From a virus: 64,000 bases of DNA. The position numbers and the translations under genes were made by a program. The stretch lies in the IMG/VR virus record IMGVR_UViG_3300050343_000212; one strand, given 5' to 3'. How positions within the stretch are numbered: the first letter of the stretch is position 1; the number at the start of each line of letters is the position of its first letter. Positions 51,905-61,411 of the stretch are shown here, piece by piece. The notes below the pieces were generated by a model. It was not told the origin of the DNA and made no database searches. It saw only the letters and a list, made by a program, of their open reading frames with translations.

Positions 51905-53821
51905 TTATCGTGTGAGTGATCCGTTTGAATAGCTTGAAGTTACTGTATATGATCCACCTGATATATCACTACCTGAGGAAACCTGATCAGGAACCATGTT
52001 CACTGTCAAATTTGAGGTATCCATCTGTAGATAGAGATCACGAAGACCAAGAACATCATTAGAGTATGGACAGGATGAAACTTCAATGAGAGAAGTTCCA
52101 CGAGTTACTTCAGTTGAAATAACATTAAGTGGGTTGAGTTTAATTAATCCTGTTATGTAATCAATCGTTCCAATGTTTCTTTTCAGAATCACTGGTTCAG
52201 TTGGTGAATCCAACTTAAACATAAAGATTGTTCCAGTGGTGAGATTTGCATTAGGTGCATCACTCATGTATACTGTTCCAGCTATACCACTTACTGAGAA
52301 ACCAGAAGTTTTAATGTTAAATCCAAGTTCACTTTTTACATGAATGCGATTACCAAATGTTAGACTATATTCAATAAATTGATTTAGTATAGCCTGTAGG
52401 TCTCTCCTCATCTTCACAGTAGTAATATTTGAGGTAATTGAATCATGACTATCGTCAATGATCTTACCAAACTTACTATACTTGAACCTTGCCCCAAACT
52501 TATTTAACTGAGTAGAATCAGAGTACTTTATGATATTATTTGTTACTACGTTCCTGACTTGGGAAGGACCAGGTGCTAGGTTTGAATTATAATATACGTT
52601 AGTATCGATCTCAATAAACAGATAATTGAGATCGATAATCTCAGTAATGATACCAGCTACCGAATACTTAGCAAGTTCTAGTTTGAGGTTCCTTTTAATT
52701 TCCTCAGATAAGAATACACCATTGAATGGTTTAATACTGACAAATACCTTACCATACTGTGGGGGATTCAGTTCTTCACCACCATATGCCGCAACTGATT
52801 CTGCTTCAGTATAGATTCTGGGGACAAGTGACTCAAAATCAGTTGATGTTACAGCTCTGTCTTGAGATGCATAGATGTTAGGTGCTAGTTTCTTAATTGA
52901 CTCAACACTCTCGATCTCATCACCACCAAGAGCCGATTCATTGATTGTGAGACCAGAAACACCACTAGCTAGTGGGCTTCCGTTATTATCTTCTATTCTA
53001 CCAATAAATGTCAGATTGGAGATACCGTTTGGTGATGATCCACTACATGTCAGATATTGAACTACAACTTGATTTGGTTCTTGTAACTTAGTTCCAAATA
53101 TACCATCACCAAACAATAATTCATATCTCTCACCTTCTGTTTCTCTTAGGAAGAATAGTGGTGTATCCTTATCTGCATTGATAAGACTAGTATATTGACT
53201 ATATTTTCTCGATACTGTTGAGTTAGAATTAACCTTTACTGATACTCTAATAGAGTCTGTATCAATACCTGTATTTGGTAAGATGTATTTTTGATTTGGT
53301 AATCTTGACTGAACATCATATGTTTGATTCAGGAACGAACCCTCATATACATCAACGTTATCAAATACAGCAAATCCTGTTGAATCTACCGGTACAGTGA
53401 TATCCTCCATTATACAAAATGTAAATGAAGAATTATTGAACGTGGAACCAGATAGTGCCACAGCCCCAGCTTTCAGTGTTACTGATACAACACTAGTCTT
53501 AGTATCACCCGATCCTCTTAGGTCAACCTCAAAGGAGATGTTTGATCTTGACGACTTCCTTGAACGAGGAAGGTAACCAATGTTTCGTGCGATTGATACA
53601 ACATTCTCTCTTAATGTTGCACTGTCAAGGAACACCTCATTCGATACCATGTTGGCATTGTATGAGGAGATATAACTGTTATATGCTAACGTGTCTATTA
53701 TTGTCGATAGATTTGATCCCTCAAAATCATAATCCGTAAAGTTGGAATTTGATCTGAGATAATCTTTGATGGATTGTTTAATCTCATCAAAATCGACATT
53801 GCTGAAGTTTACTAAGGGCAT
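51905..53821 (-). CDS. gp6: Baseplate wedge protein gp6
   Basis: DFDEIKQSIKDYLRSNSNFTDYDFEGSNLS, FLDSATLRENVVSIARNIGY, ASQDRAVTSTDFE, PPQYGKVFVSIKP. Confidence 0.96.
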   Translation of the reverse strand: MPLVNFSNVDFDEIKQSIKDYLRSNSNFTDYDFEGSNLSTIIDTLAYNSYISSYNANMVSNEVFLDSATLRENVVSIARNIGYLPRSRKSSRSNISFEVDLRGSGDTKTSVVSVTLKAGAVALSGSTFNNSSFTFCIMEDITVPVDSTGFAVFDNVDVYEGSFLNQTYDVQSRLPNQKYILPNTGIDTDSIRVSVKVNSNSTVSRKYSQYTSLINADKDTPLFFLRETEGERYELLFGDGIFGTKLQEPNQVVVQYLTCSGSSPNGISNLTFIGRIEDNNGSPLASGVSGLTINESALGGDEIESVESIKKLAPNIYASQDRAVTSTDFESLVPRIYTEAESVAAYGGEELNPPQYGKVFVSIKPFNGVFLSEEIKRNLKLELAKYSVAGIITEIIDLNYLFIEIDTNVYYNSNLAPGPSQVRNVVTNNIIKYSDSTQLNKFGARFKYSKFGKIIDDSHDSITSNITTVKMRRDLQAILNQFIEYSLTFGNRIHVKSELGFNIKTSGFSVSGIAGTVYMSDAPNANLTTGTIFMFKLDSPTEPVILKRNIGTIDYITGLIKLNPLNVISTEVTRGTSLIEVSSCPYSNDVLGLRDLYLQMDTSNLTVNMVPDQVSSGSDISGGSYTVTSSYSNGSLTR

Positions 53822-54252: not shown

Positions 54253-54408
54253 TTAGGTGTGTTCTGACAGGGTTTGTTGTCCACACTTACATACATGATT
54301 TGGATCATCACAATCTTCGGACTCAAACAATCCATCTTCGTTTACAATTCTTTTATTTTTAGGTGTAATCTTATCATTTGCTATCTCCCGAAGTAGATTG
54401 TCTTCCAT
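54253..54408 (-). CDS. Small acidic hypothetical protein, 51 aa (below the ORF-track cutoff)
   Basis: MEDNLLREIANDKITPK...CDDPNHVCKC...; the stop overlaps a CTAAATA late-promoter-like motif for gp25. Confidence 0.6.
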   Translation of the reverse strand: MEDNLLREIANDKITPKNKRIVNEDGLFESEDCDDPNHVCKCGQQTLSEHT

Positions 54409-55081
54409 CATTATCCTGTGTAGTATTAGTATCTAGTCTTTCTTTAGCAGTCTTCCAAAAATAAGAATCCTGATCACCAAGTCCATCTTTCTCATAACCA
54501 CACTCTACCTGATAGATTTGAGTGGATACTTTGAAATCTGGCATCTTTGGTTTCTCAGGTGTTAAACTATTATCATAGATACGAGTTCTATTGTTTGGAT
54601 ACAATGCATATTGTCCATTGTCAAGTTCAATCAAGTTATGAGACTTATGTTCAGAAGGGTTCTCTGAACAACTGTAATCAATGATATCAGGATCTTGATG
54701 GTAGTTGTCAAGAGTACACACATAAGACCCCTTCATGGTCCCATGGTTCCTTGTATAGACCTCATAGTTCATACTACCAATGAATTGTTTATTAACAGCA
54801 ACAACACCATAATCCATACAATTCCAAAACTGTAGGTTTTGTAAATTCATATCAGGGTCAGGTGTCTTTGGTTCTGATACAAAGGCACTGATCGGTAGTT
54901 TATCATACATTGCCCCATACTCTGGTAAGTATGTCTCAAAGTAAAAGGCTCGACCAGGGATACTCTTAGCAGATACCCATACACCTTTCTCAAACTCCCC
55001 ATGACCTGACTGGTGGTCTGTTAGATATTCTTTTCGAACCCATACTTCAACAGATGGTAAGTTAGCAATCAAACATGCCAT
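54374..55081 (-). CDS. Conserved cyanophage/cyanobacterial hypothetical protein, 235 aa
   Basis: LIANLP..EVWVRKEYLTDHQSGHGEF...SIPGRAFYFETYLPEYGAMYDKLPISAF...NGQYALYPNNR. Confidence 0.85.
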   Translation of the reverse strand: MACLIANLPSVEVWVRKEYLTDHQSGHGEFEKGVWVSAKSIPGRAFYFETYLPEYGAMYDKLPISAFVSEPKTPDPDMNLQNLQFWNCMDYGVVAVNKQFIGSMNYEVYTRNHGTMKGSYVCTLDNYHQDPDIIDYSCSENPSEHKSHNLIELDNGQYALYPNNRTRIYDNSLTPEKPKMPDFKVSTQIYQVECGYEKDGLGDQDSYFWKTAKERLDTNTTQDNDGRQSTSGDSK

Positions 55082-57353: not shown

Positions 57354-57524
57354 TCAGTTGTTTTCTAGTAGGTCTTCAATCACTGTGAATACATCATCAG
57401 TGATTGTGATTCCTTGTGATTCACAATAGTCAAGACACATTTCCAGATCAGGTGTCATCTCTAGGACGAAACTGTAAAGGTCTGAGAAGACTGATTCTGT
57501 GAGGATGGTTTGAGTGTTGTTCAT
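57354..57524 (-). CDS. Small acidic hypothetical protein, 56 aa
   Basis: MNNTQTILTESVFSDLYSFVLEMTPDLEMCLDYCESQGI...; start uncertain because the ATG lies inside motif copy 2. Confidence 0.6.
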   Translation of the reverse strand: MNNTQTILTESVFSDLYSFVLEMTPDLEMCLDYCESQGITITDDVFTVIEDLLENN

Positions 57525-57553
57525 ATCCATGGGGCAGTTTGGAGGTGAGTAAC
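57516..57553 (-). repeat. Cassette-heading motif, copy 2
   Basis: GTTACTCACCTCCAAACTGCCCCATGGATATGAACAAC. Confidence 0.88.
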
Positions 57554-57610
57554 ATTAATACCTAAGAGACTGTTACAGATAAGGGATCCTGATTTGACAG
57601 GATTGGGGGG

Positions 57611-57639
57611 TTGACATGTTCTCGAAGTCCTGATAGACT
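57611..57639 (+). promoter_or_regulatory. Antisense sigma70 promoter TTGACA-N17-TAGACT with an extended -10 (TG)
   Basis: TTGACA 57611-57616, spacer tgttctcgaagtcctga (17 nt), TAGACT 57634-57639; a second TTGACA at 57594-57599. Confidence 0.75.
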
Positions 57640-57654
57640 ACGGCCTTAGATGAC

Positions 57655-57850
57655 AATAAGATCAGACCTTTATCAGATATAAGTCATAATAAGATCAGAC
57701 GTTTCTCCACAGGTTTATAACACATAACAACACATAATATCAGGGTTTATCCACACTTTCCTTCACTTATTCCACACCCTTGTGGAAAACAATAAAACAC
57801 GCATATATGTTTTTAAATACCTTTTTTAATATAAAACATGGTATTTAGTA
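57655..57850. other. Candidate replication origin: direct repeats, DnaA-box cluster and AT-rich tract
   Basis: AATAAGATCAGAC at 57655 and 57688; TTCTCCACA 57703, TTATCCACA 57747, TATTCCACA 57768, TGTGGAAAA 57781; AT-rich 57790-57850. Confidence 0.55.
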
Positions 57851-57864
57851 TGGTTTTCTAGGGG

Positions 57865-58146
57865 TTAATTCCATCCCGTACTCTCATCAGGTTCAGGTAA
57901 ATCATCCTCACTAGTATCATCTAGGAGTTCAGGGTAAGAGTCTTTTACCTCATCAATCAGTTCATTTACAGAATACTTATCAAGGTTATCATTGATAGTA
58001 TCATATACAAATGTTTCCATAGTTTTGAAATCCATACTATCAATCAGTTCTTTAATGTATTGATCTTGTAGTTCATCTCTGTCGATGATGTTGTCCTTAG
58101 TTGTGTTGTTCATAATGTCTTTCATTTGTGAGATTGTTGGAGTCAT
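57865..58146 (-). CDS. Acidic hypothetical protein
   Basis: IDRDELQDQYIKELIDSMDFKTM...ELIDEVKDSYPELL, a recurrent cyanophage pattern. Confidence 0.75.
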   Translation of the reverse strand: MTPTISQMKDIMNNTTKDNIIDRDELQDQYIKELIDSMDFKTMETFVYDTINDNLDKYSVNELIDEVKDSYPELLDDTSEDDLPEPDESTGWN

Positions 58147-60105: not shown

Positions 60106-60290
60106 TCAACGAACATAGAGGAATGAACCGTAAGGATCTACCAACCCAGGATACTGTGCCAATGATTCAATAAAGAAACGAATACCCTTAGCAGGTGCCT
60201 TATAGGATCGGGTTTGTAACATGCTCCAGTCTCTTTGTCGATGAACATGAATACACCCTCAGTCTCATATGAACCATCGGAGTTAACACG
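60106..60290 (-). pseudogene. C-terminal half of a conserved cyanophage protein, lacking its 5' end
   Basis: IQRVNSDGSYETEGVFMFIDKETGACYKP, then after a 1-nt shift SYKAPAKGIRFFIESLAQYPGLVDPYGSFLYVR*. Confidence 0.65.
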
Positions 60291-61411
60291 TTGAATCCCT
60301 TGGCGGTAGAGATACCAACCTTAGAATAAACAGGGACAACACAGAACCCATAGGTCTTCGATTGTCCACCTTTGCGAAGAACACGACCGATAGTCTGAGT
60401 CATCTCAATGATATTCATGTTCCTCATGAAGATGACACATTCCAGTTGCGACACGTTGATACCTTCAGACAGAATCGAGCGATGAAGTACAACAAACTTT
60501 TTGTCTGTATCTTTACCCCATGCATTCAGTGTCTCGAAGAATACTTCACGACTGACTTTCTTACCATCAACAACAGCACCTGTCTTTGCAGTTATGTAGA
60601 GGTAAGAATATCCACGTTGTGCAAGTTGGTCTGCAAAGTCAGTCTCAAAGATCGTGGTGAGTTGTTTCGTAGTCTTAGAACATACTAGGATCTTTTTGAT
60701 ATCCATCTCATCAATCGTGGAGAGAATATTGTTACTCTCAAGGTGTGGAGTAATAGATGCTCTGTCCACCTTATCCATCTCGATCACCTTCACTTTAGGG
60801 GGAAGGATGAATCCACCATTAACAAGTTCGGGTGCAGATACGCGAGTGATGATGTCACCGTAGATCTCACGATCGTTCATCCCTGGTTTGTTGATAGTGA
60901 GCGAAGTCCTACGGGTTGCAGTGAAGTAGTAACAACGATCTGCATGACGTGAGAAATACTCTGTAGGACCGAAGAAGTTACGTTGAACCGAGTTATGTGC
61001 CTCGTCAAAGTAAATCGTGTCTACAGGGATTCCAGACTCTTGCACACGGTGCAAAGAATGATATGTCGTGAAGATGATGACATGTTCACGAACGGTTTGA
61101 CACATCTCCACAAACAACTTGATGCGTTCTGATTTAGTTGTCTTGAAATGTTTGGTTTCTCCACTATGAACATGGAGAACATTTGCGTTTGTGATGTGCT
61201 CCAGATACTCAGAACAAAGTTGTTCTGCAAGAAGAATACGAGGTGCGACAACAACAATCACACGAGGAACTTTGATCTCAAAACGACGCATAGCGTCCAT
61301 GATTGCGATCAGAGTCTTACCACCACCAGTCGGAACAATCACCTGACCGATAGCATTCTGTTTGAGTGCATCGAGTCCACGTTGCTGGTGTGGACGGAGG
61401 GTGATTGTCAT
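60200..61411 (-). CDS. SF2 DEAH-box helicase; C-terminal approx. 35 aa probably foreign
   Basis: VPTGGGKT (motif I), YFDEAHN (II), TAT (III), LSEGINV (V), QTIGRVLR (VI); first gene after motif copy 4. Confidence 0.9.
   Translation of the reverse strand: MTITLRPHQQRGLDALKQNAIGQVIVPTGGGKTLIAIMDAMRRFEIKVPRVIVVVAPRILLAEQLCSEYLEHITNANVLHVHSGETKHFKTTKSERIKLFVEMCQTVREHVIIFTTYHSLHRVQESGIPVDTIYFDEAHNSVQRNFFGPTEYFSRHADRCYYFTATRRTSLTINKPGMNDREIYGDIITRVSAPELVNGGFILPPKVKVIEMDKVDRASITPHLESNNILSTIDEMDIKKILVCSKTTKQLTTIFETDFADQLAQRGYSYLYITAKTGAVVDGKKVSREVFFETLNAWGKDTDKKFVVLHRSILSEGINVSQLECVIFMRNMNIIEMTQTIGRVLRKGGQSKTYGFCVVPVYSKVGISTAKGFNVLTPMVHMRLRVYSCSSTKRLEHVTNPIL

Follow-up and report, generated by a model that had tools for sequence, protein, structure and literature searches.

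A gene-free gap at positions 57531-57864 of a 64,000-nucleotide stretch of virus DNA (IMG/VR record IMGVR_UViG_3300050343_000212; the whole stretch is here called the window) holds a copy of a non-coding module that is conserved in T4-like cyanophages (Kyanoviridae) and single-copy in the four complete genomes tested. In the window this module combines a sigma70-type promoter, directed along the otherwise non-coding strand, with a 13-nucleotide (nt) direct repeat, four sites resembling the box bound by the bacterial initiator DnaA, and an AT-rich tract. As many related viruses retain one copy of it, the module is the best candidate for the unmapped replication start of these viruses. Its universal parts, the host-type promoter and the AT-rich tract, constitute the minimal recipe of the T4 origins oriF and oriG, which favours a transcription-primed origin. 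That it is an origin of the T4 oriF/oriE kind which also recruits host DnaA is a reading to which we would give an even chance; docking of host DnaA on the boxes, as an accessory opener or timer, is in itself highly probable.

An initial annotation of the window, made from the sequence alone, had interpreted the gap either as a hybrid origin or as a sink for host DnaA, and all of the motifs that it listed are present where it had placed them. Its remark that neither arrangement was known from cyanomyoviruses agrees with our literature search, which found no DnaA boxes and no mapped origin there; only a predicted "single theta origin", in Syn9, is on record (PMC2984593).

Conservation of the module among cyanophages

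The module occurs in at least ten isolated myoviruses of Synechococcus and in more than 100 IMG/VR contigs. The first blastn matches covered promoter and leader only and lay in S-B05, S-B43, RB11-B and RN05-S (about 80% identity, unannotated); further searches revealed the module also in S-SM2, S-SCSM1, S-BM3, Bellamy, S-SCSM2R and Sf-FS3. A pattern built from the promoter and the first transcribed bases retrieved at least 117 IMG/VR stretches, with 98 distinct elements among the matches listed, and these elements are the family to which the counts below refer. The promoter pattern has exactly one match per complete genome in S-SM2, S-SCSM1, S-BM3 and S-B05, for which reason a repeated mobile cassette (PeSL-like) was rejected. 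The copy of Syn9 is degenerate: its promoter is weakened and is followed by two perfect boxes, which converge, at 52565-52597.

The nearest record, the IMG/VR contig G001, was compared with the window segment by segment. Identity amounts to 98.9% from the promoter to the last box (57611-57789) and to 96.6% in the AT-rich tract (57790-57848), against 88-96% in the flanking open reading frames (ORFs) and 69-85% further out. We take it as evidence for the preferred reading that the core at 57611-57789 appears to be under purifying selection.

Genes have been annotated across the module in two genomes, namely gp86 and gp87 in Syn9 (NC_008296, 52477-52797) and SSM2_085 and SSM2_086 in S-SM2 (NC_015279, 57841-58101). 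As the module is non-coding in relatives, these four small ORFs are probably spurious and should be flagged as such; they are probably not genes.

The DnaA-box array

Four 9-mers lie within 87 base pairs (bp) of the window, two of them perfect and two with a single mismatch to TTWTNCACA, exactly as the initial annotation had it. Site 1 (57703-57711, plus strand) carries one mismatch, and the equivalent site is a perfect box in the elements L011, L013 and L039. Site 2 (57747-57755, plus) is a perfect TTATCCACA and is conserved in the subgroup to which the window belongs; site 3 (57768-57776, plus), again with one mismatch, follows 21 bp later, and site 4 (57781-57789), a perfect TTTTCCACA in inverted orientation on the minus strand, follows after another 13 bp and abuts the AT-rich tract. 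In the 44-bp gap between sites 1 and 2, the 9-nt repeat AACACATAA occurs twice on the plus strand (57719-57737, copies starting at 57719 and 57729, 10 bp apart); it contains the ACACA half of the box, is conserved in the window subgroup, and may represent degenerate sites.

The number of these sites is by itself not significant: four sites with at most one mismatch to TTWTNCACA per 100 bp were obtained in 46 of 200 Markov shuffles (23%), and the comparison with shuffled controls proposed in the initial annotation therefore fails to single out the cluster. In the window as a whole, perfect TTWTNCACA sites are depleted (4 observed versus 10.6 expected, two of the four in the module), and sites with at most one mismatch number 128 versus 154 expected. 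Four copies per 100 bp of the hexamer TCCACA, which is common to all four sites, were obtained in only 2 of 500 shuffles; the hexamer was chosen as a motif after inspection of the sites, so that the case rests on the relatives and not on shuffle statistics. Across the family the boxes form a conserved and phased array, which bears out the positional conservation that the initial annotation had asked about. Given the weak shuffle statistics, this conservation is the decisive evidence for the feature, and a chance cluster is rejected on the comparative evidence of conservation, consensus and spacing.

At least two TCCACA sites are present within 300 nt after the -10 hexamer in 54 of the 98 elements (up to five sites per element), mostly 40-160 nt downstream, against 0.14 per 300 nt as the background of these contigs. 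The search made no use of the three positions that precede TCCACA: the first is T in 89% of plus-strand and 80% of minus-strand sites, the second is T in 79% and 91%, respectively, and the third is T, A or C. TTTTCCACA is the dominant 9-mer (89 of 176 sites, which divide into 129 plus and 47 minus), and the next three are the TTCT, TTAT and TATT forms, which are present in the window. The same TTTTCCACA has been published as the "species-specific" DnaA box of cyanobacteria (PMC4674748; PMC4009838). We found it also upstream of dnaN in putative picocyanobacteria, genomes of 1.3-2.7 Mb from one cyanobacterial family, with one to eight box-like sites per dnaN-upstream locus. The family consensus, including the unsearched flank, is thus identical to the host box, and the assignment of the 9-mers to the cyanobacterial DnaA box in the initial annotation holds. 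A scan of a genome collection for two boxes 20-22 bp apart yielded many phyla and non-marine cyanobacteria, with no named marine host among the matches listed.

The commonest order of the boxes is plus, plus, minus, and neighbours on the same strand lie 20-22 or 42-44 bp apart (peaks at 21 and 42), which corresponds to two or four helical turns, 21 bp being the family mode. The final inverted box stands at 13-14 bp in 30 of 40 such neighbouring plus/minus pairs. The spacings of the window (44, 21 and 13 bp) fit this pattern.

Upstream of the boxes lies the 13-nt direct repeat AATAAGATCAGAC (57655-57667 and 57688-57700, plus strand), with an offset of 33 bp and GATC in each copy. Exact copies within the window start at 57655 and 57688 only, and in G001 the repeat lengthens to 17 nt. 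This duplication, called iteron-like in the initial annotation, recurs in the family. Shortly downstream of the start, 30 of the 98 elements possess a direct repeat in which at least 13 of 14 nt agree, and none of the shuffles does; its offset is 33-35 bp in 20 of these 30 elements. One element (L097, 5781-6080) has five tandem 31-nt units directly after the start, an expanded form of the 33-bp-spaced repeats of the window.

Fewer than two box hexamers are present in 44 of the 98 elements (about 45%) and none in 36 (35 if the 60 nt before the -10 hexamer are counted). Box-free elements hold other arrays in the same slot, for example an 11-nt periodic series of AGTAAC/AGACAC/AGATAC, and L055 (9657-9956) and L111 have four to five copies of a TGTGCCCCACA-type 11-mer in place of DnaA boxes. 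In these two the TGTGCCCCACA-type array is followed by an ORF-like region without an AT-rich tract. L016 and L017 share flanks and promoter, and the middle part between these is replaced wholesale. Such exchangeable middle arrays suggest a modular evolution of origin specificity.

Promoter and predicted transcript start

The promoter occupies 57611-57639 on the plus strand and consists of TTGACA, a 17-nt spacer and an extended -10 element in which TG (57631-57632) precedes TAGACT. Alignments of relatives, including distant ones, reveal invariant -35 and -10 hexamers separated by a spacer that varies in sequence and measures 17-18 nt. Fixed hexamers combined with a drifting spacer are the signature of a working promoter, and comparative criteria support that the promoter is real. 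It belongs to the same class as the early minus-strand promoters of the phage. The GC-rich discriminator and the first transcribed bases (57640-57654) are conserved across about 100 elements, which were retrieved with part of this very pattern. Upstream of the -35 hexamer, a block at 57571-57610 with a second TTGACA (57594-57599) and a G-run that abuts the -35 is nearly invariant in the window subgroup and the S-B05 group; the upstream TTGACA is altered in G001, and other subgroups retain only a GC-rich run before the -35. From promoter geometry only, a transcription start is predicted near 57646.

The initial annotation had called this the only strong plus-strand promoter. The promoter is indeed present, and its uniqueness is not upheld, as three further plus-strand sites between 52 and 64 kilobases (kb) likewise score 10/12; by a simple consensus score, promoter-like sites are no commoner in the window than in shuffles. 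The only ORF after the promoter has 10 codons, as had been stated. This micro-ORF was rejected as a product of the module because its ATG is missing in most relatives, and comparison of the relatives revealed no conserved ORF downstream of the promoter.

Duplex sites or RNA structure

Sites 3 and 4 could pair into a 7-bp hairpin, and the family provides a test of whether the pairing is maintained. Among 47 elements with such an inverted pair both arms are canonical in 30; in the remaining 17 one arm is changed and the pairing broken, with compensation in none. The changed arms remain within the known variants of the DnaA box (TTAT, TTCT, CAACA). On neither strand does the predicted transcript fold better than shuffled sequences (z-scores -0.74 and +0.52), RNAalifold gave -2.5 kcal/mol and no covarying pair for ten diverse copies, and the region has no Rfam match and no transfer RNA. 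A structured RNA or RNA hairpin was rejected on these grounds, i.e. no covariation, no excess folding and broken pairs without compensation. The combination of helical phasing, both orientations and absent covariation indicates protein binding on duplex DNA.

AT-rich tract and convergent late-type promoter

Beyond the last box lies an AT-rich, easily melted tract (57790-57848), a candidate unwinding element that is conserved in sequence and position. The region 57790-57864 has a GC content of 25%. The sequence of the tract is kept in S-SM2, S-SCSM1 and S-BM3, and whether or not an element has boxes; in 50 elements the 80 nt past the last box are 72-90% AT and can be aligned between genera.

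The tract ends in the motif CTAAATA (57842-57848, minus strand), which points left into it and is convergent with the early promoter. Motifs of the class [AC]TAAATA number 22 on the minus strand of the window and one on the plus strand, and usually stand 20-45 nt ahead of the starts of structural genes (e.g. 39875, 35073, 31655 and 21862); with this strand bias and this position the motif behaves as a late promoter. The copy at 57842-57848 is the sole one of the early region. Across the family the motif is found on the convergent strand in 38 of 98 elements and on the other strand in 2, and 29 carry a different conserved block. The convergent late-promoter-like motif of the initial annotation is present in the window and is common to only 39% of the family copies.

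Genomic setting

The window comes from a T4-like cyanophage, of which it represents the part with the early region and the structural arm. The gap of about 330 bases separates two small minus-strand early ORFs, both of which belong to PHROGs of unknown function: on the left, 57354-57530 (58 amino acids (aa), phrog_10297), whose coding strand opposes the module promoter, and on the right, 57865-58146 (93 aa, phrog_1352), which is conserved in many cyanomyoviruses. It is not the largest ORF-free gap, which the initial annotation had called it for the early region, but ranks third among stretches without minus-strand ORFs of at least 45 aa. Neither a candidate phage DNA-binding gene nor a recognised rep gene is linked to the module. 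Landmarks are a baseplate wedge gene (51905-53821), a ferredoxin-like gene (54374-55081) and a helicase (60200-61411). The module lies 3.8 kb upstream of the baseplate wedge gene, and about ten further small genes separate it from the structural arm; in Syn9 the distance to the baseplate wedge gene is 1.7 kb. The promoter opposes the prevailing gene direction downstream of the module in 29 of 33 elements and upstream of it in 25 of 33; S-BM3 has plus-strand ORFs downstream of the module.

Three further observations concern the neighbourhood. The helicase (minus strand, 403 aa, phrog_16, E-value 4e-61) is 2.3 kb away from the module; origin use in T4, above all at oriE, is influenced by the Dda helicase (PMC3016281). 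A 16-nt motif, GTTACTCACCTCYAAA on the coding minus strand, has six copies in the window versus 0.85 expected (plus-strand coordinates 56820, 57538, 58833, 61440, 62524 and 63410) and at least seven copies in G001; the copy at 57538-57553, which fills the gap on its left side, is to be assigned to the gene at 57354-57530 and not to the module. In S-BM3 (L023, 1100-1390) a dense array of TCTAGACTAGATTATA-type repeats of about 290 bp lies directly upstream of the module and coincides with a switch in gene orientation.

Proposed mode of action and alternative explanations

From this anatomy we infer the following course of events. Host RNA polymerase with sigma70 would initiate near 57646 on the otherwise non-coding strand, and transcription would run rightwards, against the flow of the early genes, across the two 33-bp-spaced repeats and the four DnaA sites. 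In the AT-rich tract the RNA would stay annealed as an R-loop and prime leading-strand synthesis, as at T4 oriF and oriG and probably oriE. Host DnaA, bound to the phased sites (44, 21 and 13 bp) beside the tract, would help to open it or time its opening. In the window subgroup, the late promoter would fire into the same tract from the opposite side.

Several findings weigh against this reading. The GC skew of Syn9 and S-SM2 is monotonic and has no inflection, as nearly all genes lie on one strand; after detrending, the turning points (46 and 48 kb) lie 6-10 kb off the modules (52.6 and 58.1 kb), the skew being uninformative here. The AT-rich tract is not the least stable part of the window, but ranks seventh to ninth among stretches of 40 to 60 bp (its 60-mer from 57802 is seventh), and it starts about 150 nt from the early promoter, whereas minimal T4 origins measure about 100 bp. 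The transcribed strand is poor in G (12%), which disfavours stable R-loops. No run of three trios after the last box was seen by eye, so that the DnaA-trio/GC-cluster signal observed in one host origin is absent. The elements with few boxes have retained promoter, first transcribed bases and AT-rich tract, and DnaA cannot be essential to the core function of the family. With fewer than two boxes in about 45% of the copies, DnaA docking would be an optional add-on to a core of promoter and AT-rich DNA. Of the hybrid origin with promoter priming and host DnaA that the initial annotation had proposed, the promoter, the phased boxes, the AT-rich tract and the single copy fit; what changes is that the boxes are optional.

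The DnaA-trio/GC-cluster is the unwinding signal described for bacterial origins. A run that resembles it was noted in a small cyanobacterial genome (L287, 1975-2010), where four TAG followed by GGGG stand beside DnaA boxes upstream of dnaN.

The anatomy can also be read in other ways. The module might be a regulatory element, in which the backward promoter and a DnaA roadblock act through convergent transcription or antisense RNA, and which insulates or times the early genes and the late transcript from 57848, possibly reporting the state of host replication. The convergence of early and late promoters speaks for it, as does a promoter that opposes the flow of genes 3.8 kb upstream of the baseplate wedge gene (1.7 kb in Syn9), near the junction of early and structural genes; moreover, DnaA is known in bacteria as a transcription regulator and roadblock. 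Yet the roughly ten intervening small genes place the module away from the boundary proper, the late motif accompanies only 39% of the copies, and interference would need neither a conserved AT-rich tract nor phased arrays. We therefore consider a purely regulatory role unlikely, and the two roles are not exclusive, since T4 origin transcripts are also messenger RNAs (mRNAs) (PMC3016281). Less probable still is the gene for an early small non-coding RNA, a plus-strand product of about 200 nt whose repeats are RNA motifs that might, for instance, sponge up a host RNA-binding protein. Such a gene would account for the strong conservation of the promoter and of the first transcribed bases without an ORF, for the weak hairpin and T-run at the right end of the AT-rich tract in some relatives, and for the strand bias of the box copies (129 plus, 47 minus). 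It is at odds with the lack of an Rfam match, of excess folding energy and of conserved structure or covariation; with the sole recurrent hairpin, which is broken without compensation in 17 of 47; with boxes in both orientations at 21-bp phasing; and with a transcript middle that has been swapped wholesale between close relatives (L016 versus L017).

Two explanations concern the boxes themselves. It is improbable that the 9-mers are bound by a phage-encoded or another host protein and match the DnaA box by coincidence: the alternative arrays, i.e. the 11-nt periodic series and TGTGCCCCACA in L055 and L111, must indeed bind something else, but the full 9-bp consensus including the unsearched flank is that of the host box, the tolerated variants are known DnaA-box variants, and the module is not linked to any candidate gene for a phage DNA-binding protein. 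We regard as very improbable a sink of the datA type, by which multiplying phage genomes titrate host DnaA and shut off host initiation. Three to five good boxes per genome copy, a number equal to or greater than that of several sampled dnaN-linked host origins, and the depletion of perfect boxes elsewhere in the window would suit titration. The sink had been the second proposal of the initial annotation; its box cluster is there, and the elements with fewer than two boxes weaken it as a main role, all the more as other arrays take the same slot. An invariant promoter and AT-rich tract are not needed for titration, and a sink would be redundant if host DNA is degraded, as is generally held for T4-like cyanophages.

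Significance

The module offers a precise and conserved target for the question of where these viruses start replication, and it is present in cultured phage-host pairs (S-SM2, S-BM3, Bellamy, S-SCSM1 and S-B05). T4-type phages bring a replisome and a helicase loader of their own; should host DnaA be used, such a phage would still dock the bacterial initiator, and viral replication in the main primary producers of the ocean could be linked to the cell cycle of the host and to the rhythm of light and dark. A wider conjecture, tentative and in our view somewhat doubtful, is that theta replication of T4-like cyanophages begins at one R-loop origin only, gated by host DnaA, and that the box-swapped lineages have switched the gatekeeper protein. 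If true, phage DNA synthesis would be coupled to the cell-cycle and day-night control of DnaA in the host.

Comparison with known systems

The closest counterparts are the T4 origins oriF (uvsY) and oriG (gene 34), at which a promoter and an AT-rich unwinding element suffice and the transcript persists as an R-loop that primes DNA synthesis, and which, like the module as read here, need no phage initiator protein (Kreuzer and Brister 2010, PMC3016281). As far as sequence and comparison can tell, the module appears to possess the promoter of such an origin, and its AT-rich tract (57790-57848) is conserved and, at lengths of 40 to 60 bp, belongs to the ten least stable stretches in the window. 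The transcript of oriF and oriG can double as mRNA, which may also happen in S-BM3 with its plus-strand ORFs after the module. In contrast to the MotA-dependent, middle-mode promoter of oriF and oriG, that of the module is of the host sigma70 early type, with a consensus TTGACA and no MotA box, and in this respect it resembles the early-mode promoter of oriE (PMC3016281). Moreover, oriF and oriG are units of 100 bp, whereas the AT-rich tract of the module follows about 150 nt downstream, with the repeats and the DnaA boxes in between; T4 has at least five origins without a shared motif, whereas one module per genome is found in the four complete genomes tested.

oriE likewise combines an early promoter with iterons, and a late promoter may serve T4 oriC (PMC3016281). 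Direct repeats of unproven role and a position near a change of the transcription regime are further likenesses between oriE and the module; however, the 12-nt repeats of oriE form an evenly spaced cluster and are accompanied by the linked genes repEA and repEB, and the module has two 13-nt repeats and DnaA boxes.

With the oriC of cyanobacteria the module shares the same 9-bp box, several boxes in both orientations and adjoining AT-rich DNA (PMC4674748, PMC4009838), and the number of its boxes is comparable with that in small putative picocyanobacterial origins. Unlike these origins, it has no linkage to dnaN or dnaA, and it has no DnaA-trio/GC-cluster signal of the sort observed in one host origin; a strong promoter would fire through its boxes, and related elements can do without boxes.

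Like datA of Escherichia coli, the module has a short group of DnaA boxes that is not part of the chromosomal origin; datA has no dedicated promoter or unwinding element and works via IHF-dependent hydrolysis of DnaA-ATP. The oriR of phage P1 and the iteron plasmids pSC101, F and R6K combine host DnaA boxes with direct repeats and GATC-containing AT-rich DNA, and the lambda origin adds activating transcription from pR to a DnaA-box/repeat type. These replicons encode an iteron-binding initiator of their own (RepA or O), and no such gene is evident for the module. It is about an even question whether the module, in a combination that has not been described for T4 relatives, unites both traditions: an origin with the promoter and unwinding element of the T4 type which carries the sites of the host initiator.

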